Shown: positions 1 through 26,023 of the stretch, piece after piece | Position numbering within the stretch: the stretch's first letter is position 1 | How the letters are laid out: each line of letters starts with the position of its first letter | NCBI GenBank assembly: GCA_016934735.1 | Contig: JAFGSG010000063.1 | Location: 33,361 to 97,360 of the forward strand | DNA: 64,000 nt | Reading direction: 5' to 3' | Source: Spirochaetota bacterium | GTDB taxonomy: Bacteria > Spirochaetota > UBA4802 > JAFGDQ01 | Program-made: the position numbers and the translations under genes | The notes under the pieces: generated by a model | Database searches by the model: none | What the model was told of the DNA's origin: nothing | The model's input: only the letters and a program-made list of their open reading frames with translations

Positions 1-1
1 C

Positions 2-2335
2 AATCCTATACAGACAGTGGTAGTGGACAGAAACGGCAGAATAATAGAGTTCAATAAGGCAAAGGAAACATCCGGGGACAGAATGCCTCAAATAGGGAAT
101 ATAATGTATAAAGAATATGCCGCGCATCATAAGAACGATATGCATAAAGAGCTTATGGAATGCATTACATCCGGGGAAATGCGCGAATATCCCGAGCAGA
201 TCTACAGAGATAAAATTCTGTCCATTAAAATATCCCCATTCGAAGAAGGCGCTATTATCACAACACAGGATATCACTTTGCAAAAAAAAGCCGAAGAGGA
301 ACTTAGAAAAAGCGAAGTAAAATTCAGATTTATAACAGATAACATGCTTGATCTTGTTTCCATGTGCGACAGTGAAGACAGAATGACCTTTAAAAGCCCT
401 TCGCACGAACGGATATTAGGCTATAAAAACAACGAAATCCTTGGAAGAAAAATATATGAGGACGTTTATCCCGACGACGTTGCCGGGTTTAAAGAAAAAA
501 TTCAACTTTTAAAACACAGTTCAAAACCGGACTCCGCGATATACAGGCACAGGCATAATGACGGACATTATATCTGGCTTGAAACATACGGGCACGGCAT
601 TTTTACTCCTGAAAACGAATATATAGGTTCTATATTCTGTTCAAGGGATATTACTGCCCGGAAAAACGCGGAAGAAAAAATAGAACATCTGAATGAACTG
701 CTCTATGCAATAAAAAACGTGGATCAGCTTATTGCTCATGAAAAAAACATAAACAGGCTTCTACAGAGCATCTGCGACTGTCTTATCCAGTCAAGAGGGC
801 ACATGAACGCATGGATAGCATGTGCTGATTCAGGAGACAATATCATTGTAGCGTCTGCCCCGCAATTCAATAGCAAATCTTCAGCCTTTTTTAAAACGCA
901 AAAAAACATCAACTCCTTAAAATGCTTTAACTTAATCAAAGACAACTCTGGAATTGCAATCATCGGCGATATAGCATATTGCGAAGAATGCAGGCTGGTG
1001 GAACAGGACCAGACTGCCGATAGAATGGTTATCAGGCTTGAATACAATAATAAAATATACGGCCTTATGAATGTGGGCGTACTCCCGGAGTTTATACACG
1101 AAGAACAGGAAAAATCACTCTTGGAAGAAGTTGCAGGAGAAATAGCGTTTTGTTTATACAACAGCGAACTTGAAAAAGAAAAAAAAGAACTGCAAAAACA
1201 GCTCTACAGATCAGCCAGGCTTTCCGCTGTGGGGCAGCTTGCCGCAGGAATAGCACATGAATTCAACAACATGCTTTCCGTGATCCTTGGACATACGCAG
1301 CTTTCGCTGGAAGAAGATTCAATTGACGAGATTAAACAATCTTTAAAAGAGATAGAAAAAACAACTAAACGCGGAAGCGGTATTGTAACCAAACTGGCAG
1401 CGTTTGCAAAACCGAAAGAACCTGACTTCAAAAATCAGGACATCCACAGAATTATAGACGAAGTTATTTCATTGCAAAAGAAACAGCTGCATCTGGATTC
1501 CATTATTGTTGAAACAAAATACAATTCAAAGTCAAAAATATCCATGGACCGCGGCCAGATGGAGCAGGTATTTTTAAATCTACTAATAAATTCCATTCAT
1601 GCTATTAAGCCGAAAAGCAGAGGAAAGATAGTAATTACAACTGCTGACATAAACGGAGAAGTAGAAATCCGCTTTTCCGACAATGGAATAGGCATGGACA
1701 AAGAAGTAAAATCAAAGGTTTTTGATCCTTTTTTCACGACAAAAGGCGCGTGGGCCAAAGACGGCCTTGGAATATCCGGAACCGGCCTGGGACTTCCAAT
1801 TACCCATTCCATTATTAAACAGCATAATGGTACAATTACGGTCAAGAGCCAGAAAAACAAAGGCACAACCTTTATTATTTCACTGCCCATTGATATATCC
1901 AGCAGAGTTGCAGAAGAAATACCTGCTTATAATATTCCCAAACAGGATATTGAAAAAATGAAAAGAATGCGTATTCTTCTTGTTGATGACGAATATGAAA
2001 TGACCGATATATTTAAACATCTTTTTAAAAAGGCCGAATTTCAGAATTTCAAGACAGAAAACAACGGGGAAAAGGTTGTGTCTATTTTTAAAGAATTTAA
2101 GCCTGATATTGTCTTTCTTGATATTATTATGCCGCAAATGAACGGAGAAAAAATTTTTAAGGAGATCAAAACTCTCGATAATACTACCCCTATAGTATTC
2201 ATGAGCGGTAAAGTCGATTTTGAAAAAGACGCATACATTGAAAACGGTGCATTCGACTACATTCAAAAACCTTTTGAAATAAACCAAATATATACCATCC
2301 TTAACAAAATCAGAAAGACTGGAGACCAAAACTAA
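2..2335 (+). CDS. Hybrid sensor histidine kinase (PAS-PAS-GAF-HisKA-HATPase_c-REC). Probably 5'-truncated by the window edge: the track start at 17 is GTG and the frame is open to position 2.
   Basis: H-box ARLSAVGQLAAGIAHEFNNMLSVILGH. ATP-lid motifs DNGIGM, FDPFFTTKG, GTGLGLPITHSII. C-terminal receiver RILLVDDEYEM...FLDIIMP with the conserved Asp. Confidence 0.85.
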   Translation, partial: NPIQTVVVDRNGRIIEFNKAKETSGDRMPQIGNIMYKEYAAHHKNDMHKELMECITSGEMREYPEQIYRDKILSIKISPFEEGAIITTQDITLQKKAEEELRKSEVKFRFITDNMLDLVSMCDSEDRMTFKSPSHERILGYKNNEILGRKIYEDVYPDDVAGFKEKIQLLKHSSKPDSAIYRHRHNDGHYIWLETYGHGIFTPENEYIGSIFCSRDITARKNAEEKIEHLNELLYAIKNVDQLIAHEKNINRLLQSICDCLIQSRGHMNAWIACADSGDNIIVASAPQFNSKSSAFFKTQKNINSLKCFNLIKDNSGIAIIGDIAYCEECRLVEQDQTADRMVIRLEYNNKIYGLMNVGVLPEFIHEEQEKSLLEEVAGEIAFCLYNSELEKEKKELQKQLYRSARLSAVGQLAAGIAHEFNNMLSVILGHTQLSLEEDSIDEIKQSLKEIEKTTKRGSGIVTKLAAFAKPKEPDFKNQDIHRIIDEVISLQKKQLHLDSIIVETKYNSKSKISMDRGQMEQVFLNLLINSIHAIKPKSRGKIVITTADINGEVEIRFSDNGIGMDKEVKSKVFDPFFTTKGAWAKDGLGISGTGLGLPITHSIIKQHNGTITVKSQKNKGTTFIISLPIDISSRVAEEIPAYNIPKQDIEKMKRMRILLVDDEYEMTDIFKHLFKKAEFQNFKTENNGEKVVSIFKEFKPDIVFLDIIMPQMNGEKIFKEIKTLDNTTPIVFMSGKVDFEKDAYIENGAFDYIQKPFEINQIYTILNKIRKTGDQN

Positions 2336-2612
2336 CGATTTCGCGGTATTTTAAAAAATACCATACTAACACAACAAATTCATTGCTTAACACTGTAAAC
2401 TATATTGCGTTAATTTATAAATTTTAGTATTAAAATTTATAAATACTTGACAAAGAAATAATTCGTATTTATTTTTGTTCTCATTAAATTAATAGAAAAT
2501 ACTATTTTTATTATTTTGTTGCTTTTTTCGCGATTATTTTTAATATGCCGTTTATCAGCAAGCTTTAATTAAGCGAAGACTCACTATTTTCCCATAGGGG
2601 ACACGTTTTACC

Positions 2613-3950
2613 ATGAGAAATAAATGTGCTGATGCATACCAGGAAGTTCTCTCCACAGGCCGTCTAAACTCCGACAACTACACCTTGGCAGATTTTTACA
2701 CTATAGACAGCGATGACATTTTTACCAAGACTGTACCGTATTATGAATACGTCAAAGATTATAAAGAAAAAAAATACTATTCATATCAACGGCAGCTTGT
2801 TTCTGCATGCAATCATAGAGTAAAAGTGAAAGATCCATGGACCGGTGAAATAAAAGAAATGATAATGATGGGTTCTAATAACTATCTGGGTCTCATCACT
2901 CATCCAAAAGTTGTGGAAGCAGGCATTAATGCATATCAGCGGTATGGTTCCGGCGCAAGTTCCGCACCTCTTTTAAGCGGCACTTATGACATTACCCGTG
3001 AACTCGAGTTAAAGTTAGCAAAGTTTAAAGGCACTGAGGACGCGCTTGTTTTCTCAACCGGTTATTCCGCAAATGTTGGCACTATAAGCGCTCTGCTTAG
3101 GCCCGGTGATGTGGCCATAATAGACAAACTTGATCATGCAAGCATTATTGACGGGTGCAGGCTTTCCGGAGCAGATTTGCGGACATTCAAACACCAGGAT
3201 ATTGACAGCCTTGAAAAATGTCTTGAAACATGCAAAGACAAATATAAAGGAAAACTAATAATAGTCGACGGTGTTTATAGCATGGATGGTGACATTTGCC
3301 CTCTACCCGAAATAAAAAAAATGTCTGATAAATATGATGCTAGACTTATGGTTGATGATGCTCATGCGACCGGCGTTATAGGACTGTACGGGAAAGGTAC
3401 GGCTGAATATTTCAACATGGAAGATCATGTCGATTTGATCTTAGGCACTTTCAGTAAAACTCTCGGGGCTGTCGGAGGCTTTGTTGCCGCTTCAACAAAA
3501 GTAATAAATTATTTACGTTTTTACAGCCGTTCGTATTTCTTTTCTGCAGCTCTACCACCAAACATTTGTGCAACTGTGAAAGCAGCGATCGAAGTTATTG
3601 AAGAACAACCGGAACTTATTCAACAATTGCATAATAATGTTGAATATCTTCATAGCAAGTTGAAGAATCTTGGATTGCGTGTTACTCCTCCCGGAACCGG
3701 AATAATAACGGTCATTCTTAATGATGAAGTAACACTCCGAAAAATGAGCAAAGTAATCCATGAAAAAGGCCTTTTCATTAATCCTTTACCATTTCCGTCA
3801 GTGCCAAGAGGCGAACCGCGCTTTAAATTAAGTTTAATGGCTACGCATACGCAGGAAGCTTTAGACGAAGCAGCGAATATATTTGAAGAAGCGTGTAATG
3901 AATTTGATATTATAGAGTCCAAAGTTTATGCAATGTTAGCATCTGTTTGA
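2613..3950 (+). CDS. PLP-dependent alpha-oxoamine synthase family acyltransferase (BioF/KBL/serine palmitoyltransferase/CqsA-like), with an N-terminal extension of about 70 aa.
   Basis: GSNNYLGL glycine-rich motif. DDAHATGV. PLP-lysine motif GTFSKTLGAVGG. Length 445 aa. RBS agggga upstream. Confidence 0.85.
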   Translation: MRNKCADAYQEVLSTGRLNSDNYTLADFYTIDSDDIFTKTVPYYEYVKDYKEKKYYSYQRQLVSACNHRVKVKDPWTGEIKEMIMMGSNNYLGLITHPKVVEAGINAYQRYGSGASSAPLLSGTYDITRELELKLAKFKGTEDALVFSTGYSANVGTISALLRPGDVAIIDKLDHASIIDGCRLSGADLRTFKHQDIDSLEKCLETCKDKYKGKLIIVDGVYSMDGDICPLPEIKKMSDKYDARLMVDDAHATGVIGLYGKGTAEYFNMEDHVDLILGTFSKTLGAVGGFVAASTKVINYLRFYSRSYFFSAALPPNICATVKAAIEVIEEQPELIQQLHNNVEYLHSKLKNLGLRVTPPGTGIITVILNDEVTLRKMSKVIHEKGLFINPLPFPSVPRGEPRFKLSLMATHTQEALDEAANIFEEACNEFDIIESKVYAMLASV

Positions 3951-3960
3951 ATAATCCTTT

Positions 3961-5364
3961 ATGTATAAAAAAAACTCCAGTGATTTTTCAGCAGACTTTA
4001 TAATTATTGGTTCAGGTTTAGGTGGTCTTATTACCGCTGCATATCTAGCACGTGCAAAATACCGTGTACTAGTTCTTGAAAAAAATAGTGAAATAGGCGG
4101 TAAATGCGCAACACGTACGATAAATGGCTATAGATATGTCATCGGGGCAAATGGTTTCGGAAGCAGAACGGCTAGTATTTTACAAAATTTTGGAATCAAT
4201 ATAAAATGGATTCCAGCTTCATTTCATATCTATGGAAAAAATGGTTCCCTTAAATTTCCCTTCACATTTTTATCTTTCAAAGAACTTAAAACATTTGGAA
4301 TGAATTATTATTCAATTTTAAAAATGTGTGCTAAACTTGGTAAAACGATACTGTTGCCAAGTTTAGCAGGTAAAACATACCGTAATTATATCGATTATTT
4401 AATCGATGAGCCGGATGCAAAAGAGTTATTGTTCCTTGAAGCATGGTATGTCGGATCACATCCCGATTGGTTGTCTGCCTCTGCTTTAAAATTCTTTATG
4501 GGTACCTTCTATGGATTTAATAAACCTATTTATCCATTAAGTGGAGCGCAGGCTATTCCGATAGCACTTTCAGACTACATCAAAATTCATGGAGGTACTG
4601 TATTAACCAAACAGAATGTTACAAAAATTGGCATCGAAAATGGTACAGCAAAAGTAGTTCAGGTTGGTAGAGATTGGTTCTCTGCAAAATATGCAATAAT
4701 CAGCAATGCAGAAACTGCTCAAACACTTTCCATGCTTAACGATAAGAAGGAAATATTTCCAATAAAAAATAATTATTTATCTCCGAAAAGTGCATTCTCA
4801 TTTGCATTATTACTTTTGTCTTTAGATGCTAATAAAGCCCCTAAAACAATCGCTAATCCAAATCCTTCTCTAGAGACCAACTCTCCATTGCTTATCAGGC
4901 CTATATGTGAAATCATTGGTGAGCTAGAAAAAGGGGAAATCAACAATTCTCCGGTTTGTAATCTCGTGTTATCAGATCTTAAAGCGCAATTGATGAGTGG
5001 CGCCCGACTAACACATCTGCCTGTTCATGTATCAATTCTTTGGCCTCAAAAGCTGCAAAAAAAATTAAATCTTAAATCCCTAACTCAATCTATTTTAATA
5101 GAGATAAATAAACGATATCCAGGCTTTGCTGATGCAGTTACATCTTCCCAATGGTTAACCCCAACAGATTATAAAAAACGCTTTGATTTCTCAAGCAATC
5201 CAGCACCGATCCTTGAAACACCAACTTATACTAAACAATCTTGGAAATTGCCAGTAAATGGTCTTTATAATGTAGGTGCAACTGTTTTACCTTCAGGATC
5301 TCATACAGGAACAGCGATTGAATCAGGTCGCTTATGCGCTAAAGATATTTTAAATTACATCTAA
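3961..5364 (+). CDS. FAD/NAD(P)-binding oxidoreductase, phytoene-desaturase / amine-oxidase superfamily.
   Basis: N-terminal Rossmann dinucleotide motif IIIGSGLGGLITAAYLA...VLVLEKNSEIGGK. About 467 aa, as in the CrtI-like family. Starts 10 nt after the AOS stop, so likely co-transcribed. Confidence 0.7.
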   Translation: MYKKNSSDFSADFIIIGSGLGGLITAAYLARAKYRVLVLEKNSEIGGKCATRTINGYRYVIGANGFGSRTASILQNFGINIKWIPASFHIYGKNGSLKFPFTFLSFKELKTFGMNYYSILKMCAKLGKTILLPSLAGKTYRNYIDYLIDEPDAKELLFLEAWYVGSHPDWLSASALKFFMGTFYGFNKPIYPLSGAQAIPIALSDYIKIHGGTVLTKQNVTKIGIENGTAKVVQVGRDWFSAKYAIISNAETAQTLSMLNDKKEIFPIKNNYLSPKSAFSFALLLLSLDANKAPKTIANPNPSLETNSPLLIRPICEIIGELEKGEINNSPVCNLVLSDLKAQLMSGARLTHLPVHVSILWPQKLQKKLNLKSLTQSILIEINKRYPGFADAVTSSQWLTPTDYKKRFDFSSNPAPILETPTYTKQSWKLPVNGLYNVGATVLPSGSHTGTAIESGRLCAKDILNYI

Positions 5365-5419
5365 GTTAGCTTTTTATTTTTTTTCTCTAGTACCATTTAA
5401 TATCAAAAGGATAAAGGCC

Positions 5420-6589
5420 ATGCATGTAAAAGTATATAATAGCATTACAGAAATAGACGAAGAAAAATGGAATGCATTAATAGGGAGAAATCGCATTATC
5501 TGTTCTTTCAAATTTTTACTAGCTGTTGAAAAATCTCATATAAACGATTGTGAATATTACTATCCCGTTGTTTACGAAAATAATCAAATAATAGCTCATG
5601 CATGCACATATTCAATCACTACAGATTTGGATACACTTGCAAAAGGTATAAGTAAAAAAATAATTCAACTAATTCGCTTCTTCTGGAAAAATTTTTTAAA
5701 AATTAAATTTTTAGAGTGTGGTACACCAATAGCAATTGGAAATACAATATCTTTTGCTGAAAATATCGATAAAAAAAAAGCATTAAACATACTAGTGGAT
5801 TGTGTAGAGAAAATCGCAAATAACAGACGTTTAAATATTATTCTTTTCAGAGATTTTTACGAGGATGAAATTAACTTTTTTAACGATTTAAACAAAAAAA
5901 AATATAAAAAAGTAAATAATCTTCCTAATGCAATTCTTAAAGTAAAATGGAATAGTTTTGATGAATATATAAATGATCTCAGAAGTCATTATAGATATAA
6001 ATTTAATAAATATTTAAATAAAATAAAACAGGAAAAAATAAAAGTTGAATTATGTAATGATTTTATAGATATCGCTGAAAATCTTCAAACCTTATGGCAA
6101 AATGTTTATGATAATGCGAAAGAATACAAGAGAGAAATTCTTACAAAAGATTTTTTCATTTATTTGAATTCATATTTAAAAAATAAAGCAAAAATTATAT
6201 TATTGAAAAAAGATTTAAAAATTATCGGATTTGCATTATTATTAATCGATAATGATATCTTAAGGTTTATGTTTTCAGGAATTGATTATAAGTATAACAT
6301 TGAGCACTCTACATATTTTAATTCTCTTTTGTGTATTGTTAATCAAGCAATTATTGAACAAAAAAAAGAAATAGATATTGGCCTTACAACCTACATTCCG
6401 AAAATGAATGTTGGTGCAAAAATCGTAAATTTATATATGTATATAAAACACACAAACAGACTGCTTAATCCATTAATAACCAACCTCTTTACTATCATGA
6501 ATCCAAAAATAGAAATAAAAACAAATAATGTCTTTAAAGAAAAAATTGAAAATAAATTTGCAAAAAAATATTCGTTAATACATAATTAA
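5420..6589 (+). CDS. FemAB-like GNAT acyltransferase (Acetyltransf_6 / BioF2-associated family).
   Basis: About 390 aa. N-terminal EEKWNALI motif and overall layout typical of the FemAB-like GNAT family that is repeatedly found next to or fused with BioF2-like AOS genes. Extremely AT-rich and K/N/I-rich. Confidence 0.55.
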   Translation: MHVKVYNSITEIDEEKWNALIGRNRIICSFKFLLAVEKSHINDCEYYYPVVYENNQIIAHACTYSITTDLDTLAKGISKKIIQLIRFFWKNFLKIKFLECGTPIAIGNTISFAENIDKKKALNILVDCVEKIANNRRLNIILFRDFYEDEINFFNDLNKKKYKKVNNLPNAILKVKWNSFDEYINDLRSHYRYKFNKYLNKIKQEKIKVELCNDFIDIAENLQTLWQNVYDNAKEYKREILTKDFFIYLNSYLKNKAKIILLKKDLKIIGFALLLIDNDILRFMFSGIDYKYNIEHSTYFNSLLCIVNQAIIEQKKEIDIGLTTYIPKMNVGAKIVNLYMYIKHTNRLLNPLITNLFTIMNPKIEIKTNNVFKEKIENKFAKKYSLIHN

Positions 6590-6641
6590 TATAGTCTTAT
6601 AAAAATTACTTAATTATAATGGTTTTTCCGATAAAGATGTA

Positions 6642-8291
6642 ATGATAAATCCATTAAATACAAAAATGGAGCTCAGTGTTCGAGCTACCCATACTTTTTT
6701 TTTGGCTTTTGAAAAGCAATATGGGAAAAGTGAACTGACCAAACTTATTGATGGAACCGGAATGTCTTTGGATTACTTTGATGACGAAAATAACTGGATA
6801 TCATATGATTATTTCTGCCATGTATTAGATAAAATAGTTGATATTTCAGGTGATCCGAATTATGCATATAAACTTGGATTAACAGCAGCTAAAAGTAATA
6901 GCTGGGGACTAATAAAACTAATAATTACAACTTTTGTTAGCTGTACATATACATATAAAAAAGTAATCTCATTAAGTCCGAGATGGGCAAAAAGCGGGAA
7001 ATTTAACTTTTTAAAAATTAAAAAAAATAAGGCAACACTTGAATATAAATTACGAGAAGATTTAAAACAATATAAAAATAATTGTCTTAGCATACAAGGC
7101 CAATTAGCGTCTATCCCTACTTATTATAATCTCCCCCCTGCAAAAATACGCGAACTCCAATGCGCAGCAGATGGAGCAGATTCGTGCATTTACGAAATCA
7201 GCTGGAAAAATCCACCATATAAAAAAATGGGTTTTTATTTTTTTTTAGCAGGAATTGCATTCTCTATACTACTATATTATTTATACCGACATTCATTCAT
7301 TTCATTATCATTTATTCATGCACTGGTATTTATTATTATCCCGGCAGCAGGTTATTCAATATGGAAGCTGATAAACGATAAAGAAACAATTAAGGATAAT
7401 TATAAAAAAATTGAACAACAAAACGAAGTGCTTACAAAACACCTTGAAGAAATTGAAAAGCTTAACGAGATACTTCAAAACAAAGTTGAAGAAAAAACCA
7501 ATGAACTTCTGGCAAGCAATGACGATTTAAGAATGAAGATAACCGACCTTAAAAACAACGAGGATGAATTAATCAGATCGGGTAAAATGTCAATAATTGG
7601 GAAAATTTCCGAGGAAGTTGCGGATAAATTAAAAAAGCCTCTGAATAAAGTGCATAAAATACTGGCAGATGTAACAGGTAAAACTCACGAAGACACCATA
7701 AAGAGCAGTCTTACAGGCGCGCAAAGAGCAGCAGACAGATGTGAAAAAACGCTCAACGAACTTCTATCCTTTTCACATATCGGGAATAATTTATCTGTTC
7801 ATGGAGTAGATGTAAATAAATTAATCGAAGAGTGCGCGAATAAAGCAAATGAACAAATATCCAATCCGGATATCAAAATATGTACAAAATTTACAAATGA
7901 TCTGCCTATAATTTCGGCAGATTATAAGCAGATAGAACAAATTATAATGATTTTTATAACAAACGCTAATGACGCAATTAACGAGGCCTTAAAAAATAGC
8001 AATAAGAAAGAAGGTGAAATCTCAATACAGACATCCTTTCAGGACAATAATATCCTCATTGAAATTAAAGACACTGGATCCGGAATCCCCAACGAGGTAA
8101 TAAAAAAAATATTTGATCCATTTTTCTCCACAAAAAGTACGAGCAAAAGAAAAGGCATGGGCCTTACATTAAGCTATAACTATATTAAACAGCTTGGCGG
8201 AAAAATTGACGTAAAAAGCGATGAAGGCAAAGGTACTACATTTACAATTGCTTTTCCGGTAACGGAAAATAATAATACTTTTATTAAGTAA
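6642..8291 (+). CDS. Membrane-anchored histidine-kinase-like protein with a cytoplasmic XylR-A/V4R-like sensor domain. The phosphoacceptor His is replaced by Asp; the ATP-binding domain is intact.
   Basis: N-terminal ~195 aa ends ...NNCLSIQGQLASIPTYYNLPPAKIRELQCAADGADSCIYEISW, a V4R-like Cys motif. Two TM helices (FYFFLAGIAFSILLYYLY / ALVFIIIPAAGYSIW). DHp helix GKISEEVADKLKKPL aligns gaplessly with the paralog's AGVAHEINNPM. N-box NANDAI, G1 DTGSGI and G2 GMGLTL are present. Confidence 0.75.
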   Translation: MINPLNTKMELSVRATHTFFLAFEKQYGKSELTKLIDGTGMSLDYFDDENNWISYDYFCHVLDKIVDISGDPNYAYKLGLTAAKSNSWGLIKLIITTFVSCTYTYKKVISLSPRWAKSGKFNFLKIKKNKATLEYKLREDLKQYKNNCLSIQGQLASIPTYYNLPPAKIRELQCAADGADSCIYEISWKNPPYKKMGFYFFLAGIAFSILLYYLYRHSFISLSFIHALVFIIIPAAGYSIWKLINDKETIKDNYKKIEQQNEVLTKHLEEIEKLNEILQNKVEEKTNELLASNDDLRMKITDLKNNEDELIRSGKMSIIGKISEEVADKLKKPLNKVHKILADVTGKTHEDTIKSSLTGAQRAADRCEKTLNELLSFSHIGNNLSVHGVDVNKLIEECANKANEQISNPDIKICTKFTNDLPIISADYKQIEQIIMIFITNANDAINEALKNSNKKEGEISIQTSFQDNNILIEIKDTGSGIPNEVIKKIFDPFFSTKSTSKRKGMGLTLSYNYIKQLGGKIDVKSDEGKGTTFTIAFPVTENNNTFIK

Positions 8292-8322
8292 TTTTTTAAA
8301 ATTACGAAAAAATAGCAATTAT

Positions 8323-9945
8323 ATGAAACGCGAAGACCTGGACCCAAAACTCATAAAACTAGAACATAGTGTTAAAGCGATCGGCCATTTACTCCAATCA
8401 TTTGAAGCGGACTATGGCAAGGATGAGCTTGTTAAATTTATGGATAGAACAGGAATTCCGCTTGAATATTTTAACAACAAAAACAACTGGGTAAGCTTCG
8501 ACTATTTTCTGACTTTACTTGACCAACTTGTTGAACACACCGGAAATCCGCAAATAGCTTTTAAATACGGTTTAAACACTGTAAAATACGGCGATACATG
8601 GGGAATACTGAAAACACTTTTTACTATAATACCCTCACCCATGTATATGTATAAATCCGCAATTAGATTTAATGGCAGATATAGTAAAGTAACCATAAGT
8701 AAAATAAATGAACTAAATAAAAATAAAGTTATAATTGAATTTGGTTTTAAAGAAGGTTATAAAACTAATGTGAATAATTGTCTCAATATACAAGGAAGCC
8801 TTGTATCTCTACCAACATATTTTAACATGCCTGTTGCTGAAGTAAAAGAACTGCAATGTGCTGCCAAGGGCGCAGACACATGTGTTTACGAAGTAACATG
8901 GCAGGAAATAACCAATAAAAAAAATAAATTTTTTTCTTTACTTACGGGCATCTTTGCCGTATACTTATTGTACGCTGTAATCAATTGGTTCGGTTTAGAT
9001 ATAAACACATTAATTAAAATAATATTGTGTGCGATTCCAATCGCGTTCTACAGCGTGGGCCGCGCCATTGATTACAAAATGACAATACGCGACAACATGG
9101 AGGTAGCACAGGACCAGAACAAGGCGACAATTGAATCTCTGGAAAATGTTCAGGAAATAAACGAAGAACTTCAGAGAAACATCGACCGGAGAACCCAGGA
9201 ACTAAAAATTACCAACAGAAAACTTGCAGAAACAGTGATCCTCATACAAAAAAGCGAGCAAGACCTGCTGACAGCGGAAAGAATGGCAGGCATAGGACAG
9301 CTTGCCGCAGGCGTGGCCCACGAGATCAATAATCCAATGGGTGCTGTAAGAAACTACCTGCAGGATGTTCTGGAAGATATCCCTGATAATGATCCGCGGA
9401 GACAGGCTCTTATAGAAGCGGAGAAAGCCACAAAAGAAAGTAAGATATTAATAAACGACCTCCTGTCATTTTCAAGGACTTATGAGAATTTATATATTGT
9501 CGATATTGACGTTAACGAAGTACTGGAAAGGATCTGCGAGAGAATCAAGTTTTCAAATTTAAATATTAAAATTAATAAATACTTGACTCCCGGCATTCCT
9601 TTGATAAAATCAGACCAGATGCAGGTGAATCAGTCATTAAACAACATAATTCTAAATGCCTGCAACGCTATAAAAGAGAATGGATTGATCGCGGTAAGGA
9701 CTTCGTCCGGTCCGGAAGGCATCCATATCGAAGTAACAGATAACGGAGAAATAATTCCGCCGGATCTACTGGATAAATTTTTTGACCTGTCCGGTATGGA
9801 ATTTAAATGGGTGGGAAGAAAAGACCTTGAAATCGCGATGAGCTACAGCATAATTAAACGCTTTAACGGAGATATAACAGTAAGCAGTTCAGTTGAGAAC
9901 GGCACAATATTTAAAGTTCTAATTCCTTATATAATTAAAGTATAA
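8323..9945 (+). CDS. Paralogous membrane-anchored sensor histidine kinase with an XylR-A/V4R-like sensor domain. H-box intact; ATP-binding G1/G2 motifs degenerate.
   Basis: Sensor domain ...NNCLNIQGSLVSLPTYFNMPVAEVKELQCAAKGADTCVYEVTW. TM hairpin. H-box ERMAGIGQLAAGVAHEINNPMGAV. G1 reads DNGEII (second Gly lost). The G2 region reads GRKDLEIAMSYS instead of GxGLGL. Confidence 0.75.
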   Translation: MKREDLDPKLIKLEHSVKAIGHLLQSFEADYGKDELVKFMDRTGIPLEYFNNKNNWVSFDYFLTLLDQLVEHTGNPQIAFKYGLNTVKYGDTWGILKTLFTIIPSPMYMYKSAIRFNGRYSKVTISKINELNKNKVIIEFGFKEGYKTNVNNCLNIQGSLVSLPTYFNMPVAEVKELQCAAKGADTCVYEVTWQEITNKKNKFFSLLTGIFAVYLLYAVINWFGLDINTLIKIILCAIPIAFYSVGRAIDYKMTIRDNMEVAQDQNKATIESLENVQEINEELQRNIDRRTQELKITNRKLAETVILIQKSEQDLLTAERMAGIGQLAAGVAHEINNPMGAVRNYLQDVLEDIPDNDPRRQALIEAEKATKESKILINDLLSFSRTYENLYIVDIDVNEVLERICERIKFSNLNIKINKYLTPGIPLIKSDQMQVNQSLNNIILNACNAIKENGLIAVRTSSGPEGIHIEVTDNGEIIPPDLLDKFFDLSGMEFKWVGRKDLEIAMSYSIIKRFNGDITVSSSVENGTIFKVLIPYIIKV

Positions 9946-10016
9946 CCTTTTAACAATTTGTCGGATGTGGTTTTGTTCAATGCAAAATTGAACTATACTC
10001 AATAAGTTCATAAAAT

Positions 10017-10042
10017 AGCCCGGCCTTAGAGGGCTTTATGTT
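10017..10042 (+). terminator. Possible rho-independent terminator after the tandem kinase genes. Hand-derived coordinates, +/- 2 nt.
   Basis: agccc-ggccttaga-gggct stem-loop followed by ttatgtt. Confidence 0.35.
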
Positions 10043-10131
10043 CTTACTCAGTATATATTGCTATATATAATAGTTTATGCAAATGCCGGCAGAACACAAT
10101 TTAGTCAATCTTTGACACCCGGCCTGGTTGG

Positions 10132-10163
10132 TATTCCTTTTCACAGAAGCCGGAAAAGGAATA
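10132..10163 (+). promoter_or_regulatory. Perfect 10-bp inverted repeat (tattcctttt ... aaaaggaata) with a 12-nt spacer, about 50 bp upstream of the REC-PAS-HK-REC gene. Candidate operator or leader hairpin.
   Basis: Read directly: tattcctttt cacagaagccgg aaaaggaata. A TTGACA hexamer lies about 20 bp upstream. Confidence 0.3.
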
Positions 10164-10213
10164 TATCTTAGCGGATATATTTTACTTTAATGATTATTTC
10201 GAGGAATTAGAAA

Positions 10214-12127
10214 TTGAGTATTAAAAAAGAAGAACGAGTTAACCTCCTTTTAATCGAAGATGATATCGATTTTAAAACTTCATTAGCAAACCGACTTGCT
10301 AAAAATGACTGCAATGTCACAGCTGTCGGGTCTGCAGAAGAAGCGCTGGAATTAGTCGGTTCCGGAAACTACGAGGTAATAGTTTCCGATATTAAACTGG
10401 AAGGAATGGACGGGCTGGAATTTCTTTCCAGGATTAAAAAAATCAATGAAGATTTGCCCGTCATTCTCGTAACCGGGTATGCCAATCTTGATACGGCAAG
10501 ACAGGCGGTTGCCCTGAATGCCTATAACTATCTTCTTAAACCTCTGGAAAATATTTCCGATATACTGATACCAATTAAAAACGCCGTTCAAAGTTATAAG
10601 CTTCAAATCGAAAATAAAACACTAAAAGAACATTACGAAAATATTGTAACAAGTGTTCCTGACGGGATTTTAACAATAAACAGCTCTACTTTAAAAATTG
10701 AATCCGTAAATAAAACATTTTTGAAAATATTCAATACATCTGAAAAAGAAGTGCTGAATAAAAAAATTGATAAAATATTTGATAAAGAAGTTACTGATAA
10801 AATAAAATATCTCATGGAATCGCTCGGCCTGGACGGGAACGCTCTGTCTTTCGAGTGGCTCACATTAAACCAGAACGAAAAAATATTCTGGGCGAATATC
10901 ACGCTAAAAAGAGCTGTAATCGGCAAGAAGGAAAGCATCCTCATGGTTGTCTCGGATATCACCAATTTAAAGCGGGCGGAAGAAGATAAAAAAGAACTGG
11001 AAGTACAGTTCATCCAGATGCAGAAACAGGAAACTATCGGAAGCCTTACGGGAGGGATAGCACACGAATTCAACAATATACTTTCAATAATTTTGGGGCA
11101 TGCTCAGCTTTCTTTAAGTGAAAATGCCAGTCCTGAACTGAAAAAATCACTGACAGAAATTGAAAAAGCAACCATGCGCGGAAGCAGTTTAGTCGAGAAT
11201 ATGACTACATTCGCAAGCCCAAACCAGCCGGCTTTAATACCGCAGGATATCCGGGATAGCATTGACAGCGTTCTGCAGATGCAGGACAGGCAACTGCGTT
11301 TTCAGAATATTGAAATCGAAAAAAATTATTCCAATGAACTCGTTGCGCTATTCGATTCCGGTCAGATGGAACAGGCTATCTTAAATTTATTAATAAATTC
11401 CATGCATGCCATAAAACCGAAAGGGAAAGGCAAAATCTCAATAACCGTCCGCGATCTGGAAAATTCTATTGAGATAATCTTTCAGGATACCGGGATAGGC
11501 ATGAGTCAGGAAACGCAGGAAAAAATATTTGATCCTTTCTTTACAACCAAAGGCGCATACTCAAAAGACGAACATGATATATCCGGAACCGGATTGGGAC
11601 TCTCAGTAACAAATGCGATAATTAATCAGCATCATGGCTCAATTTCGGTTGGGAGCGAAGTGAATATCGGAACTACATTCAGAATAGGCATCCCTGCGGC
11701 AAAAACAGCCCTTGAAGAAAAAATAATAACGGCTGAATTATCACAAAACATCAACATGGAAAAGATCAGAAACCTCCGTATACTGCTTGTAGAAGATGAA
11801 GACGAAATAGTTAAATTGCTGAAACTAGTTTTTAAAAAGGCCGGATTAAAAAATTTTTTAATTGAACAAAACTCCAAAAAGGCAGTGAAAGCCTTTATTG
11901 ATTTTAACCCGGATATTGTTTTTATTGATCTGATAATGCCGGAAATGAACGGGAAACAGGTTTTTGAAGAAATAAAAAAAATAAATGAAAAAGTGCCTCT
12001 TGTGCTTATGAGCGGAAAAATTAATATAAAAAAGGAAGAACTTTCACAAATGGGTTCTTATGATTATATAAAAAAACCGTTCAATATAAACGATTTATAT
12101 AAAATCCTTGATAGAGTATCTTTATAA
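10214..12127 (+). CDS. Hybrid two-component protein REC-PAS-HisKA-HATPase_c-REC.
   Basis: N-terminal receiver LLLIEDD...VIVSDIKLEGMDG. H-box GSLTGGIAHEFNNILSIILGH. DTGIGM/GTGLGLSV. C-terminal receiver RILLVEDEDE...FIDLIMPEMNG, very similar to the C-terminus of the first kinase. Confidence 0.85.
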   Translation: MSIKKEERVNLLLIEDDIDFKTSLANRLAKNDCNVTAVGSAEEALELVGSGNYEVIVSDIKLEGMDGLEFLSRIKKINEDLPVILVTGYANLDTARQAVALNAYNYLLKPLENISDILIPIKNAVQSYKLQIENKTLKEHYENIVTSVPDGILTINSSTLKIESVNKTFLKIFNTSEKEVLNKKIDKIFDKEVTDKIKYLMESLGLDGNALSFEWLTLNQNEKIFWANITLKRAVIGKKESILMVVSDITNLKRAEEDKKELEVQFIQMQKQETIGSLTGGIAHEFNNILSIILGHAQLSLSENASPELKKSLTEIEKATMRGSSLVENMTTFASPNQPALIPQDIRDSIDSVLQMQDRQLRFQNIEIEKNYSNELVALFDSGQMEQAILNLLINSMHAIKPKGKGKISITVRDLENSIEIIFQDTGIGMSQETQEKIFDPFFTTKGAYSKDEHDISGTGLGLSVTNAIINQHHGSISVGSEVNIGTTFRIGIPAAKTALEEKIITAELSQNINMEKIRNLRILLVEDEDEIVKLLKLVFKKAGLKNFLIEQNSKKAVKAFIDFNPDIVFIDLIMPEMNGKQVFEEIKKINEKVPLVLMSGKINIKKEELSQMGSYDYIKKPFNINDLYKILDRVSL

Positions 12128-13537
12128 AGAATTCAGATATCCCTCTATTCCCTGAGCAGCCTGCCTTCCCTGCGAGATTGCCCTTACAACAAGCGAAGCT
12201 CCGGATGCAGAATCTCCTGCTGCGAAAATTCCGTCGATATTCGTCATATAATCCGCGTTAACTTTAATATTGCCCCGTGAATCAGTGCTAATCCCCATAT
12301 TCTTAATCAGTTCATGCTCAGCATGAAGAAATCCCATAGCGAGAAAAACAATGTCGGCTTTTATAGCAATATCAGTTCCGGGCAACTCTCTCATTCTATA
12401 GGAATATTTTTCATCGTAATACCATTCAACCTGCACTGCTGTGATGCTGCTAACTCTCCCGTTATCCCCATCGAATCTTTTTGTCAATATATTCCAATAT
12501 CTTTCACAGCCTTCTTCGTGAGAGCTTGATGTCTTTAAAAGTTTAGGCCAAAGCGGCCACGGTTCATCATCTGTTCTGTGCTCCGGCGGCTTAGGCAAAA
12601 GCTCTATCTGTGTTATATTTGCAGCGCCCTGCCTGTTTGCGGAACCGACACAGTCTGAACCCGTATCGCCGCCGCCTATAACCACAACGTTTTTATTATA
12701 TGCCCTTATGAGTTCCTGTTCGGGAATTACATCGCCTCTCACGATCTTATTCTGCTGGGTAAGATATTCCATAGCAAAATAAATACCGGTCAAGTCCCTG
12801 CCGGGTATCTCAAGGTTCCTCGGTTCACGCGCGCCGATTGTCAGACAAATTGCATCAAACTCGTCTTTTAATTTTAAAATATCACTGCCTATCCTCACAC
12901 CGGTTTTAACAATAAGACCTTCCTGTTTTAATATATTCACCCGCCTGTCAATTATGTTTTTGTTGAGTTTAAAATCCGGAATACCGAACCTTAAATAACC
13001 GCCGACACTGTCTTCAGCTTCATAAAGTACAACCGTATGCCCTGCTTTGTTTAAAATATCCGCACACGCAAGGCCTGCCGGGCCGCTGCCTATTACAGCT
13101 ATCCTTTTACCTGTCCTATTCTTCGGCGGCCTTGGCACAACATAACCCTCTTTGAACGCTTTTTCGATTACAAAAAGCTCATTATTTCTTATGGTTACCG
13201 CCTCGTCATTAATTGAAAGCACACATGATGCTTCGCACAAAGCAGGGCAAACGCGGCCGGTAAACTCAGGAAAATTATTTGTCTCCTGTAAAATTCCATA
13301 TGCTGCCTTATAATCTCCCCTGTAGATCATATCCTGCCACTCAGGCATCATATTCGAGACCGGACAGGCCCAATGACAGAAAGGGACTCCGCAATCCATG
13401 CACCTGGAAGCCTGAAGCTTTCTGGCCTGCTCCGGAAGTTCCTGTTCAACTTCATGATAATCCCTGACACGCTCCTCTATAGGCCTGTAGCCGCCTTCTT
13501 CCCGTTTTATGTTTAAAAAACCTGACGGATTACCCAT
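12122..13537 (-). CDS. gltD: Glutamate synthase (NADPH) small subunit.
   Basis: GRVCPALCEASCVL Fe-S motif. FAD/NAD(P) Rossmann motifs IAVIGSGPAGLACA and VVVIGGGDTGSDC. Its start overlaps the gltB stop. Confidence 0.85.
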   Translation of the reverse strand: MGNPSGFLNIKREEGGYRPIEERVRDYHEVEQELPEQARKLQASRCMDCGVPFCHWACPVSNMMPEWQDMIYRGDYKAAYGILQETNNFPEFTGRVCPALCEASCVLSINDEAVTIRNNELFVIEKAFKEGYVVPRPPKNRTGKRIAVIGSGPAGLACADILNKAGHTVVLYEAEDSVGGYLRFGIPDFKLNKNIIDRRVNILKQEGLIVKTGVRIGSDILKLKDEFDAICLTIGAREPRNLEIPGRDLTGIYFAMEYLTQQNKIVRGDVIPEQELIRAYNKNVVVIGGGDTGSDCVGSANRQGAANITQIELLPKPPEHRTDDEPWPLWPKLLKTSSSHEEGCERYWNILTKRFDGDNGRVSSITAVQVEWYYDEKYSYRMRELPGTDIAIKADIVFLAMGFLHAEHELIKNMGISTDSRGNIKVNADYMTNIDGIFAAGDSASGASLVVRAISQGRQAAQGIEGYLNSL

Positions 13538-16500
13538 TAGAATATTTCCTCCAATTGCTCTTCTTCCCTGATCTTCTTGAGCTTCTCATCGATCATAGAA
13601 ATTTTTATTTCATTCATAGCGCGTTTGTATTCAAACGAAATTACTTTGATAAACTTAGGAAGATAATCATACCAGTTCTTGAGTATATCTTTCGCGTTGC
13701 TGCTGTCCGTGTATTTAATATGTTTCTGAAGCAATTCCAGTATAAAATCCTGATCTTCATAATCCCTTACCTGTGACAATTCAACCATACCCTTGTTGCA
13801 GAAATAATCAAAATTGCCGTCCCTGTCCAATACATATGCAATCCCACCGCTCATGCCTGCTGCGAAGTTGCGGCCCACTCTGCCAAGCACTATTATGCGT
13901 CCGCCGGTCATGTATTCTGCGCAATGATCGCCGGTACCCTCAACAACCGCTGTTGCGCCGCTGTTTCGCACGCAGAAGCGTTCGCCCGCTATGCCGCGGA
14001 TAAAGGCTTCTCCCCCAGTAGCGCCGTATAGTACGGTGTTGCCGACTATTATGTTCTCCTCAGCTTTAAAGACTGAATCCCGCGAAGGCGTAACTATAAG
14101 CCTGCCGCCGGAAAGCCCCTTGCCGAGATAATCGTTGGAATCGCCTTCAAGGCGGAATGTGATTCCCTTTGCAAGAAAAGCGCCGAAGCTCTGCCCGGCA
14201 CTTCCGCGGAACACGCATTCAATGCTGTTGTCCGGAAGTCCGGCGTCACCGTATTTCCGGGAGATCTCATATGAAAGCATGGCGCCTGTAGCGCGGTCCG
14301 TATTGCTTACCTGCATTTCAATGTTTATCCGGCTTCTGTTTTCATCGCTCATTGCCGGCTTTGACTTTTCAATTAGCACTTTATCGAGAACATTTTCAAT
14401 CTTGTGTATCTGACATTCAATGCAGTAACCAGTATTCCTTCCGGCTTCCGGGGATCTGTAAAGTATCCCGGAAAGATCGACTTTCCCTGCTTTCCAGTGA
14501 TCAATATTTCTTGATATTAAGAGATCGGTTCTGCCGATGAGCTCATCAAATCTCCGTACTCCTATCATGGCCATAATCTCGCGTACTTCCCGCGTTAAAA
14601 ATGTAAAATAATTGATAAGATGCTCCGGCCTGCCTTTAAATCTTTTTCTTAGCTCAGGGTCCTGAGTGGCTATACCGACAGGGCATGTATTTATATGGCA
14701 TTTTCTCATCATCACGCATCCGAGGGAAATGAGCGTTCCTGTTCCGAAACCGAATTCCTCTGCACCCAGAAGCGCTGCAATGACAATGTCCCTGCCTGTT
14801 TTTAACTGACCGTCCGTCTGTAGGCGCACTCGTCCCCTGAGATTATTCCGGACTAGGGTCTGATGCGTCTCTGACAGGCCGAGCTCCCATGGCAGTCCCG
14901 CATGCTTTATTGAGCTTAAGGGGCTTGCGCCTGTGCCTCCGTCGTATCCGCTTATTAGAATATTGTCAGCATGCGCCTTGGCAACCCCGGCTGCGATAGT
15001 GCCTACTCCGGCTTCCGAAACGAGCTTAACGCTTATCCGCGCATTCGGATTGGCGTTCTTAAGATCGAATATCAGCTCCGCAAGATCCTCTATCGAATAA
15101 ATGTCATGATGAGGAGGAGGCGAAATTAGAGTAACACCCTGTGTGGAATAGCGCGTCTTTGCTATTATTCTGTCTATCTTGTGTCCTGGAAGCTGGCCGC
15201 CCTCGCCCGGCTTCGCTCCCTGAGCGATCTTAATCTGGATCTCATCCGCATTTGCAAGGTAATTGCTGGTCACTCCGAATCTGCCCGAAGCTACCTGCTT
15301 TATCGCGCTTCTGGCAAATGAGCAATCCTGACGCATAAGGAATCTACCCGGATCCTCTCCGCCTTCCCCGGAATTGCTTCTTCCGCAGATAGCATTCATG
15401 GCAACACCGATAGTTTCGTGCGCCTCCCTGCTTATCGACCCGTAAGACATTGCGCCTGTTGTCAGGCGTTTCAGAATACCGGGCAACGGTTCAACTTCCT
15501 CGACAGGAATCGGATTGTTCTTAAAATCAAGCAGACCTCTGATGACATGAGGCCTACGGTTGCTTTCATCCACAAGCCCGGAAAACTCTTTATACCTAGC
15601 GTAATCCGACGTGCGCACTGCCCACTGCAGAAGGCGTATTGTATCCGGGGTCCACGCATGCCTCTCGCCGCTCTTTCTGTACTGATACACACCCTGTGAT
15701 TCAAGAGAGGATATTTTTTGATAAGCTGATTCATGTTTCATCAGAGATTCTTTTGCAATTTCCTTTATTCCTATACCACCAATCCTTGAATCTGTTCCAG
15801 AAAAATATTTATCTATAACTTCTTTTCCAAGTCCCACTGCTTCGAATATCTGCGCACCCCGGTAGCTCCTAAGAGTGGAGGTACCCATTTTAGACAGCAC
15901 CTTCAGGAGACCCTTGTTTACAGCCTTGATATAATTATCAACCGCATGCTCACTGTCAATATCAGAAGATAATTTTCCACGTTTATATAAATCCTCTACT
16001 ACAGCGATCGCGCCATAAGGATTCACAGCGTCTGCGCCGTAACCGAAAAGAAGGGCAAAATGCATCACTTCCCTGGGTTCCGCCGACTCTATTACTAGCC
16101 CGGCCATTGTTCTCTTCCTGGATCTTATAAGATGATGATGCACACCGGCGCATGCAAGAAGAGACGGAACGGGCGCTTTATCGCAGCCGGTTTCCCTATC
16201 AGATATTATTATGATGGTATTTCCGCTATCAATACTTTCCTCTGCTTCAGCACACATCCTCTCGATAGCAGCTTCAAGACCGGATACGCCGTCACTGACA
16301 TTGAATGTTGCATCAATTACCGCTGGTCTGAAATTGGAATTGTTTATGTTTTTCAGCTTCTGAATATCCGGCTGAGAAAAAACCGGACTTGTAAATTTAA
16401 TTACCCTGCAAAGCTCCGGATCCCCGGATAGAATGTTTGTATATGAACCTATGAAACTGGTTAATGTCATGACAAGTTCTTCGCGTATTGAGTCAATGGG

Positions 16501-18072: not shown

Positions 18073-18236
18073 AATTTTATCACTTCGATTTTTAATAATT
18101 CCTTTATATTTAAAAATAATGGTACAATTTAATTATAGACAACATTATCTTAACAAGACAAATTTATATTGTCACTGTTGAAATAATTATATTTTACAAA
18201 AACATAAAATCAAACTAATTTTAAGGCAAATTAACA

Positions 18237-18270
18237 AAAATGCCTGCTGTTATAATGCAGCCGGCATTTT
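18237..18270 (-). terminator. Rho-independent terminator downstream of the amidotransferase-GXGXG gene. It separates the upstream operon from gltBD. Coordinates +/- 2 nt.
   Basis: aaaatgcc-tgctg-ttataa-tgcagcc-ggcatttt hairpin (8+4 bp) with T-tracts on both sides. Confidence 0.55.
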
Positions 18271-18305
18271 AAGCACCGCTTTTTATATGTTATTTGTTTT
18301 TTGTT

Positions 18306-20951: not shown

Positions 20952-21002
20952 GAAAAAACCTCGCTATATAACAGGTATGCGATTCACAAATGTTGTTTAT
21001 AT

Positions 21003-23925: not shown

Positions 23926-23935
23926 TTATATCCTC

Positions 23936-25521: not shown

Positions 25522-25642
25522 TGCTTTACTCCTCGCAGTGTCTTTTAATAAATCATCTTAACTGATTTTCCCATTCCTAAAAGCATAAACGAATCGATAA
25601 AACAGTTAATTATTATAATATTATAAATAACAGTCAAAGCTT

Positions 25643-26023
25643 TCAGCCAAGTAATTCACGTGTTAGTTTATCAACTGTATAATTATTCCCGGCTTTGAGA
25701 CGGATAAGCTCAAGCATTCCGCGTTCAAGTCCGATTTCTTCGATCAAGTTCTGCGTATATAACAGTCTTTTTCGTGCGCGGATATTACCTTCTCTATAGC
25801 GGCACGCCCCTTCCGGGCATGTGACAACATAAACCTTATCCGCGCCGGATTCAATCGCGCGCATCAGGTGCAGCGGTTCTATCCGTCCGCTGCATGGAAT
25901 CGGAAAAAATCTGATCTGAGGTCCGAATTCTTTTTCAATGGAACGCCGGTTAACATCCTGATTTTTATCTATCTGCTGGCAAAAGAAAATTGCGTATTTT
26001 TTTCCTGCATTCGTTTTCTTCAT
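25643..26023 (-). CDS. mvhD: MvhD/FlpD-like [2Fe-2S] hydrogenase-delta-type electron-transfer protein.
   Basis: PCSGRIEP...GADKVYVVTCPEGACRYREGN signature of the FlpD/MvhD family. 126 aa. Confidence 0.7.
   Translation of the reverse strand: MKKTNAGKKYAIFFCQQIDKNQDVNRRSIEKEFGPQIRFFPIPCSGRIEPLHLMRAIESGADKVYVVTCPEGACRYREGNIRARKRLLYTQNLIEEIGLERGMLELIRLKAGNNYTVDKLTRELLG

Follow-up and report, generated by a model that had tools for sequence, protein, structure and literature searches.

What do three closely packed enzyme genes produce when two sensor kinase genes follow them directly on the same strand, and could the kinases read that product? The question is raised by a gene block in a stretch of 64,000 nucleotides (nt) from a Spirochaetota bacterium (metagenome-assembled contig JAFGSG010000063.1; this whole stretch is called the window hereafter). 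The original prediction, made from the letters of the stretch, proposed that the enzymes make an acylated aminoketone or aminolipid that is sensed by the adjacent kinases. Following it up computationally, we find that the genes for an alpha-oxoamine synthase (AOS), a FemAB-like GNAT transferase, and a kinase with a particular N-terminal domain of ~190 residues (the N-domain) recur together on many unrelated contigs and are, judged by this gene order, a conserved functional unit beyond chance. The gene and domain content of this module suggests the known theme of an AOS signal synthase beside a sensor kinase, here varied by another type of receptor and another second enzyme, both of them new. 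In the window, the enzyme cassette and its kinases comprise the following genes:

2613..3950, + strand: AOS, a pyridoxal phosphate (PLP)-dependent enzyme of fold type I, 445 amino acids (aa)
3961..5364, + strand: CrtI/amine-oxidase-like flavin adenine dinucleotide (FAD) oxidoreductase (the flavoprotein), 467 aa
5420..6589, + strand: FemAB-like double-GNAT transferase (the GNAT), 389 aa
6642..8291, + strand: kinase A, a membrane histidine kinase, 549 aa
8323..9945, + strand: kinase B, a membrane histidine kinase and paralogue of kinase A, 540 aa

The positions of the open reading frames (ORFs) bore out the predicted close packing in one direction, with intergenic gaps of 10, 55, 52, and 31 nt from the AOS through kinase B, and Pfam placed the three enzymes in the families that had been proposed for them (Aminotran_1_2, Amino_oxidase/NAD_binding_8, and FemAB_like).

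Conserved linkage of enzymes and kinase

The GNAT family was traced to its contigs, using one genome per species and metagenomes, and every ORF on them was scored against the window proteins; relative loci are given here by 'L' numbers, and the P0010 contig was judged by gene order and domain content only. Besides the window, the GNAT adjoins a kinase with the same N-domain at 15 non-redundant loci (P0010 contig, L003, L004, L005, L006, L012, L014, L015, L016, L017, L019, L021, L022, L027, and L029), so the link to sensor kinases on which the original prediction depended does occur elsewhere, and with the same type of kinase. An AOS was found in every GNAT-kinase locus that had upstream sequence to inspect. 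The metagenome-assembled genomes (MAGs) carrying the cassette are labelled Spirochaetota/Leptospirales, Omnitrophota, Planctomycetia, Desulfobacteraceae, and Neomarinimicrobiota. The genes around the cassette vary from locus to locus, and in L021 the three genes are rearranged and spread over both strands, still within 12 kb. When an alignment of eight N-domain sequences was searched against metagenomes, five loci were returned. N-domain relatives of at least 41% identity adjoin a GNAT, and those of 32% and 24% (L028 and L030) do not. In L028 (4486-8670), a gene for a B12-radical-S-adenosylmethionine (B12-radical-SAM) enzyme, which scores 253 bits to the cassette enzyme of L017, lies directly 5' of a gene for an 809-aa kinase with a divergent N-domain; this locus also has a REC protein and lacks both AOS and GNAT. 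Its layout indicates that the N-domain sensor also pairs with radical-SAM enzymes alone.

Several further partners recur. A gene for a FadL/TodX (Toluene_X) outer-membrane channel lies directly 5' of the AOS gene in L006, L012, L015, L019, and L022, and LuxR-type regulators of the form REC-(PAS)-GerE are found in L006, L017, L019, and L022. Hybrids of REC and histidine kinase domains and single REC proteins recur as well. Gene fusions join the parts even more closely. L015 (1827-4859) carries PilZ, AOS, and GNAT in a single ORF of 1010 aa, and fusions of GNAT and PilZ occur in P0021 and L023 (2810-4303). The 912-aa protein P0074 combines a Fem-like GNAT, the N-domain, HisKA, and HATPase in one polypeptide, which could be a read-through artefact, as the GNAT and kinase genes overlap in L006. 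A further protein of 1234 aa (P0101) starts with 338 residues that have no domain match, followed by PilZ, the N-domain, and a kinase, and may likewise be a read-through artefact. RRVPR and NISQTG motifs, suggestive of PilZ, occur in the N-terminal extension of the AOS of L021 (14754-16361, - strand), with no Pfam PilZ match at an E-value of 0.001, and we do not claim a PilZ domain there.

The enzymes also occur together apart from the kinase. A divergent AOS, a flavoprotein, and a split Fem-like GNAT lie side by side in L033, and L008 (2-5725) has a polyketide synthase (PKS) module (ER-KR-ACP, truncated 5' at the edge of the contig), behind which lie genes for an AOS and for a distant GNAT of the Fem-like type (31%). 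By this grouping, the enzymes form a biosynthetic unit of their own. The product of L008 may be a lipid anchor or sphingolipid-like, as far as its gene content tells.

The three enzymes

The AOS matches Aminotran_1_2 (PF00155) with an E-value of 1.5e-61. Its GTFSKTLG motif, in which the PLP lysine had been predicted, aligns with the lysine motif of Spt, Kbl, and BioF from E. coli, confirming that assignment, and K282, H175, D248, and H251 are invariant in this alignment. The protein thus combines the Pfam family, the PLP lysine, the stacking His, and the pyridine-nitrogen Asp that define the AOS family. To place it within the family, NCBIfam equivalog models were used, with scores compared to the curated cut-offs. 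None of these cut-offs was reached (all values in bits, score/cut-off): Spt-CFB (NF047600), 401/640; the Spt models NF047599, 353/500, and NF047603, 291/670; the Kbl models, 391/460 and 324/493; BioF, 384/426; and the CqsA/LqsA-type model NF005526, 203/428, which ranked ninth among the AOS models. Among structures in the PDB, the top match was SPT from Sphingobacterium (299 bits), followed by Kbl-like enzymes, and CqsA reached 122 bits; identity to Spt from E. coli BL21 is 37%. Since no equivalog cut-off is reached and the nearest structures are SPT and Kbl-like, the AOS is by sequence assigned to a distinct subfamily, and is not an equivalog of CqsA/LqsA, Spt, Kbl, or BioF. The carboxylate-binding Arg was considered as a signature of the AOS clade, and proved uninformative, with R or K at this position among close relatives. 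Of the scanned ORFs in the 64-kb window, none is a bio or tdh gene. Regarding the analogy to CqsA and LqsA that had been drawn, the superfamily and the layout of genes are shared, whereas the clade is a different one.

The GNAT belongs to FemAB_like (PF04339; E-value 1.1e-14, 54.8 bits versus a cut-off of 27) and has the tandem GNAT fold of this family, as seen in an AlphaFold model with a predicted local distance difference test (pLDDT) score of 91.4. Its own family is tiny, with 26 clusters at 90% identity among 5.8 billion proteins. The nearest folds are the aminoacyl-tRNA-dependent Fem transferases (FemX, FemA, and Sbb17; 7-17% sequence identity), which rank above MprF aminoacyl-phosphatidylglycerol synthases and the tandem GNATs that use acyl-CoA, and the CoA pyrophosphate-binding motif A is absent from the GNAT family. 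Together, the modelled fold and the missing motif lean towards an aminoacyl rather than an acyl donor, and the predicted 'acylated' product may therefore be 'aminoacylated'; the aminoketone part of that prediction we retain as an inference, with its amine as the presumed site of substitution. An identity of the GNAT with bacterial ceramide synthase (bCerS) was rejected. YghO, the named E. coli homologue of bCerS (PMC9386255), showed no BLASTP similarity to the GNAT when taken from strain BL21, and hhalign gave a probability of 0.14%.

The flavoprotein matches Amino_oxidase and NAD_binding_8 (1e-14) and is a remote relative of CrtI and amine oxidases. Its clade is tight, with five further members at 55-67% identity, four of which apparently lie on cassette contigs. 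The next relative, at 37%, is the one in the kinase-less cluster of L033, and relatives beyond it are found among B12-radical-SAM and ketosynthase genes. The flavoprotein is missing from L004-L006, L012, and L014-L022, some of which have B12-radical-SAM genes instead. It had been predicted as a part of the cassette, and this does not hold for the cassette at large, as the flavoprotein is confined to the lineage of the window and one distant cluster without kinases. Because most cassettes lack it and some have B12-radical-SAM genes, it is, on comparison of the loci, an accessory tailoring enzyme of the window lineage's cassette. L035 (1969-9362) and L036 hold three B12-radical-SAM genes, two tandem genes for CrtI-like flavoproteins, a 4HBT thioesterase gene, and ketosynthase genes, including the next-nearest homologue of the cassette flavoprotein (32%); by its genes, this cluster looks like an anaerobic pathway for lipid-chain tailoring.

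Sensor domain, kinase pair, and surroundings

Kinases of the cassette consist of the N-domain (residues 1 to ~195 in kinase A), two transmembrane (TM) helices joined by a loop of ~8 residues, a coiled coil, the dimerization and histidine phosphotransfer (DHp) domain, and the catalytic ATP-binding (CA) domain. Read directly from the sequence, the predicted periplasmic loop of kinases A and B has 8 residues only, which places sensing in the cytoplasm or within the membrane. V4R, Arabinose_bd, and H-NOX folds bind small hydrophobic ligands, and the kinases had been predicted to be of V4R type. This stands at the level of the superfamily and fails at the Pfam threshold, since the two window kinases reach 13.5 and 16.8 bits against a V4R cut-off of 31, in sub-threshold matches over the C-terminal Cys motif. 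Among 16 cassette kinases, V4R is matched by 11 and Arabinose_bd by five. By sequence, comparison of the N-domain to the PDB gave chance matches only, and a word-indexed search of the phmmer type with the isolated N-domain found just two short proteins, so that an exhaustive hidden Markov model search was needed. This profile search revealed a much wider family of 1602 clusters at 50% identity (711 at an E-value of ≤ 1e-10), in which the N-domain is mostly N-terminal in proteins of 500-1200 aa.

We sampled 56 diverse members of this family for domain content and invariant columns. Fusions to histidine kinases prevail (39 members), and others carry GGDEF, class III cyclase, Ser/Thr kinase, SpoIIE, or ABC exporter parts. 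Arabinose_bd was matched in eleven members (best E-value 3e-8) and V4R in five (best 2e-7). The only columns invariant across all 56 members are three Cys, which correspond to C148, C174, and C182 of kinase A, and E171 is nearly invariant. In the phenol-binding V4R domain of DmpR, the zinc ligands C151, C177, and C185 have this C-26-C-8-C spacing, too (PMC7264223). The Cys triad (Cys3) probably binds zinc, if the likeness in spacing is a guide. On the basis of family homology, modelled fold, and Cys3 signature, we assign the N-domain as a remote ligand-binding domain of the V4R/Arabinose_bd/H-NOX fold.

The two kinases of the window differ in which half is damaged. In kinase A, the phospho-acceptor His of the DHp domain is replaced by Asp (ADKLKKPL), and the N, G1, F, and G2 boxes are intact; in kinase B, the H-box is intact (AHEINNP), and the G1 (DNGEII), F, and G2 boxes are degenerate. 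Thus, neither of them has the acceptor His together with all ATP-site boxes of a canonical HisKA kinase. The pair in L003 (11201-12832 and 12905-14524) repeats the pattern, with an A copy that lacks the acceptor His (Asp or Ser across both loci) and keeps the N, G1, F, and G2 boxes, and a B copy that has the H-box and degenerate G1 (DNGEII and DNGDII in the window and L003), F, and G2 boxes. All boxes are intact in the single-copy kinases of other phyla. Compared in this way, the pair is a product of duplication followed by complementary degeneration, and the complementary half-defects suggest a heterodimer in which A probably phosphorylates B. The A/B pair offers a naturally occurring example of such degeneration in a histidine kinase. 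L004 has two A-type kinases and no B, for which the heterodimer model does not account.

Three further features flank the cassette:

2..2335, + strand: truncated hybrid histidine kinase (PAS, HisKA, HATPase_c, REC by Pfam; listed ORF 17-2335, with the frame open to base 2)
2413..2475, + strand: candidate regulatory region 5' of the AOS gene, with an inverted repeat and a promoter-like site
10214..12127, + strand: REC-PAS-HisKA-HATPase-REC hybrid (Pfam)

The 5' end of the upstream hybrid kinase gene is cut off by the window edge. Full-length relatives of 1054-1176 aa are encoded 5' of the AOS gene on the P0010 contig and in L003, L004, and L012, and this synteny is limited to Spirochaete/Leptospirales relatives. 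The prediction of a PAS hybrid kinase was correct for this gene, while the GAF domain it included was not recovered by Pfam, which finds PAS, HisKA, HATPase_c, and REC only. The downstream hybrid has the domain order that had been expected. In phmmer comparisons, the protein encoded at 10214-12127 scores 168 bits against the REC-PAS-GerE protein of L017 and 154 bits against the REC-GerE protein of L006, and its N-terminal REC-PAS part is, at the level of sequence, the counterpart of the REC-PAS-LuxR(GerE) regulators of Planctomycetia and Omnitrophota. Kinases A and B probably transfer phosphate to this hybrid.

The region 5' of the AOS gene contains a perfect 14-nt inverted repeat (2413-2426 and 2431-2444; ATTTATAAATTTTA, a 4-nt spacer, and TAAAATTTATAAAT) that could be an operator in this AT-rich sequence. 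Directly 3' of it, at 2447-2475, lies the best promoter-like site before the AOS gene (TTGACA-17-TATTTT). Matches to the promoter consensus are modestly enriched (59 found versus 42.7 expected), and in an AT-rich region this is weak evidence. An Rfam scan of 1-13000 found no riboswitch or other RNA. The block ends at the convergent gltD/gltB genes 3' of the downstream hybrid gene, and the other genes of the window are those of an ordinary chromosome (glutamate synthase, gdh, carB, guaA, tsaD, ccmF, flgE, and fliK). At a long distance from the cassette, another two-component pair is encoded (REC-PAS-HisKA-HATPase at 51406-52983 and REC-HATPase at 53011-54285), and no DNA-binding response regulator was found among the scanned ORFs of the window. 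The G+C content of the cassette and kinases (2001-12000) is 29-37%, versus 43-49% in the neighbouring glutamate-synthase block (12001-26000); as other parts of the window also have 33-39%, this is not clear evidence of horizontal transfer.

Signalling circuit or other function

We favour an autoinducer-like synthase-receptor circuit, in which a self-made hydrophobic signal is read by its cognate kinase, and put its chances at about even. From an amino acid and an acyl thioester, the AOS would form an alpha-aminoketone by condensation, and the Fem-like double GNAT would N-substitute the amine with an aminoacyl or acyl group. Optional tailoring would be performed by the CrtI-like flavoprotein in the window and by B12-radical-SAM enzymes elsewhere. 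The V4R/H-NOX-fold Cys3 N-domain of the kinase would then read the hydrophobic product on the cytoplasmic side of the membrane, and the kinase would signal on to REC-PAS regulators; in the lineage of the window, kinases A and B would probably act as a heterodimer in which A phosphorylates B. In many relatives, the compound would pass the outer membrane through the FadL/TodX channel, and the PilZ domains on the enzymes would tie its synthesis to cyclic di-GMP (c-di-GMP).

Several points weigh against this circuit. Enzymes and sensor domain are both cytoplasmic, so that the kinase could watch an internal intermediate for homeostasis. V4R sensors and FadL-family channels classically serve substrate sensing in catabolic operons, like XylR with XylN, and by this analogy the ligand of the kinase could be an imported compound. 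In the window, a FadL gene is absent, and no DNA-binding regulator lies near the cassette. Distant GNATs of at most 42% identity keep the AOS in four of seven loci (L007, L008, L025, and L033; L007 and L025 also have a YggS-like gene) and the kinase in none, and L009, L023, and L024 have neither. In L008, the pair of AOS and GNAT adjoins genes for capsule export (Poly_export and two Capsule_synth), which fits a lipid role. The structure model of the N-domain is of moderate quality only (pLDDT 68.6, from four sequences), and the taxonomic labels of the MAGs may be unreliable.

The strongest rival, possible though distinctly less probable, is a pathway for envelope lipids. Here, the AOS would act as an Spt, the GNAT would be a non-homologous replacement of ceramide synthase that N-acylates the keto long-chain base, the flavoprotein or the B12-radical-SAM enzymes would tailor the alkyl chain, and the kinase would sense the lipid, or the state of the membrane, and so regulate lipid synthesis, with no signal passing between cells. 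The top matches of the AOS are indeed Spt enzymes (Spt-CFB in the equivalog models, the Sphingobacterium SPT in the PDB, and 37% identity to the E. coli BL21 enzyme), although the Spt cut-off is not reached (401 versus 640 bits). In bacteria, the keto base is N-acylated after the Spt step (PMC11087976), and in MAGs of anaerobes it is common for an Spt-like gene to have neither bCerS nor CerR in its vicinity, for which a non-homologous replacement has been proposed (PMC11334938). Also in favour are the PKS module beside the AOS, GNAT, and capsule-export genes of L008, an acyl-AMP ligase gene adjoining the AOS gene in L021, and the B12-radical-SAM and ketosynthase genes around the nearest non-cassette homologues of the flavoprotein (L035). 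Yet CerR, an acyl carrier protein (ACP), and acyl-ACP synthetase are absent from the window, and the cassette has no epimerase-type reductase. The GNAT has no relation to YghO/bCerS and no CoA motif, and its nearest folds are aminoacyl-tRNA-dependent transferases. The GNAT family is rare (26 clusters), and strict linkage, even fusion, to a ligand-binding kinase, together with LuxR-type regulators and FadL, is unusual for genes of a bulk lipid.

An improbable second rival is uptake and conversion in response to a substrate, as in XylR/XylN or TodS/TodX, in which the V4R-like domain would sense an exogenous hydrophobic compound that enters via FadL, and the AOS and GNAT would convert or detoxify this compound or its CoA ester. 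AOS enzymes are biosynthetic formers of C-C bonds, which speaks against such a role, as do the PilZ-enzyme fusions, which point to regulated production. An activating enzyme, such as a ligase, is missing from most loci and from the window too, which makes an endogenous acyl donor probable, and the window has no FadL. What keeps the idea alive is the position of FadL/TodX directly 5' of the AOS gene in five loci, the acyl-AMP ligase of L021, and the precedent of DmpR and XylR, whose V4R domains bind substrates of the very operons that these proteins control (PMC7264223).

Membership in the CqsA/CqsS or LqsA/LqsS systems of alpha-hydroxyketone quorum sensing is effectively refuted: the superfamily and the layout of a synthase beside a kinase are the same, but for the AOS the CqsA-type model ranks ninth among the AOS models (203 versus a cut-off of 428 bits), CqsA structures score below SPT (122 versus 299 bits), the kinase combines a cytoplasmic V4R-like domain with two TM helices, unlike a CqsS-type receptor with its multi-TM layout, and an additional transferase is obligatory. 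A housekeeping BioF or Kbl that lies among unrelated kinases by chance, to which the scores near the cut-offs (Kbl 391/460, BioF 384/426) might point, is refuted by the conserved synteny, with the AOS-GNAT-kinase order recurring in MAGs labelled as several phyla; in addition, both scores are below cut-off, and no bio or tdh gene turned up among the scanned ORFs of the 64-kb window.

If the signalling circuit is real, AOS-based signals would gain a third enzymatic logic, in which the AOS acts with a Fem-like transferase. The circuit would also bring a new class of receptors with the V4R/H-NOX-fold Cys3 domain on membrane kinases, belonging to a wider family of > 1600 sequence clusters, and a direct link of c-di-GMP to the production of a signal. 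To our knowledge, hardly any chemical signalling has been described for Omnitrophota, Planctomycetia, Neomarinimicrobiota, and free-living Spirochaetes, since most of them are uncultured. In the searchable literature, no account was found of the module, of a characterized PF04339 member, or of a V4R-type receptor kinase paired with an AOS, in agreement with the claim that the architecture had not been described. The cassette is a clonable target of two or three genes for heterologous expression.

Among known systems, CqsA/CqsS of Vibrio and LqsA/LqsS of Legionella are alike in having a PLP enzyme of the AOS family beside a membrane histidine kinase at the head of a phosphorelay, and a hydrophobic signal derived from an acyl chain, which in the module would be formed likewise. 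The module differs from them in the clade of its AOS, the Fem-like transferase as obligatory second enzyme, the cytoplasmic V4R/H-NOX-fold Cys3 domain as receptor in place of a multi-TM sensor, the presence of FadL, LuxR-type REC-PAS regulators, and PilZ fusions, and its occurrence in MAGs labelled Spirochaetota, Omnitrophota, Planctomycetia, Desulfobacteraceae, and Neomarinimicrobiota. The ceramide pathway of Spt, bCerS (YghO-like), and CerR shares the presumed order of an alpha-aminoketone formed by an AOS and a cytoplasmic N-substituting transferase, and it is Spt that the AOS resembles most; in contrast, the module misses the Spt cut-off, has a transferase unrelated to bCerS (hhalign 0.14%), lacks CerR, ACP, and acyl-ACP synthetase, and is tightly coupled to a sensor kinase. 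From the Fem enzymes (FemX, FemA, and Sbb17) and MprF-type enzymes, the GNAT of the module is separated by an identity of 7-17% and by its acceptor, which would be a small aminoketone and not a peptidoglycan precursor or lipid. The N-domain shares its fold family with the V4R domains of XylR, DmpR, and MopR, the Arabinose_bd domain of AraC-type regulators (VirS), and H-NOX, with Pfam matches from sub-threshold to significant, the Cys triad spaced like the zinc ligands of DmpR, and a pocket for small hydrophobic ligands. Domains of the module type are found on membrane-anchored histidine kinases (in the family also with GGDEF, cyclase, Ser/Thr kinase, and ABC parts), unlike the sigma-54 AAA+ and AraC outputs of XylR, DmpR, and VirS, and the N-domain is not captured at the Pfam gathering score.

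A last comparison concerns the pyrazine and pyrazinone autoinducers (DPO and the AI-3 family; PapD/PapF), with which the module would share aminoketone chemistry. An aminoacyl-aminoketone would cyclize to a dihydropyrazinone, which a flavoprotein of the amine-oxidase type could aromatize, as PapF does with dihydropyrazine. We consider it rather unlikely, but worth stating, that the Fem-like enzyme depends on aminoacyl-tRNA, that its product cyclizes and is aromatized by the flavoprotein in this way, and that a V4R kinase receives it under PilZ/c-di-GMP gating in several largely uncultivated phyla. We know of no dedicated route by an AOS and a Fem-like enzyme to pyrazine or pyrazinone compounds; if true, autoinducers of the alkyl-pyrazinone type would for the first time have an enzymatic route dedicated to them, with a new class of V4R receptor kinases. 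The difference from the known pyrazinone systems is that a pyrazinone is, for the module, a hypothetical product.

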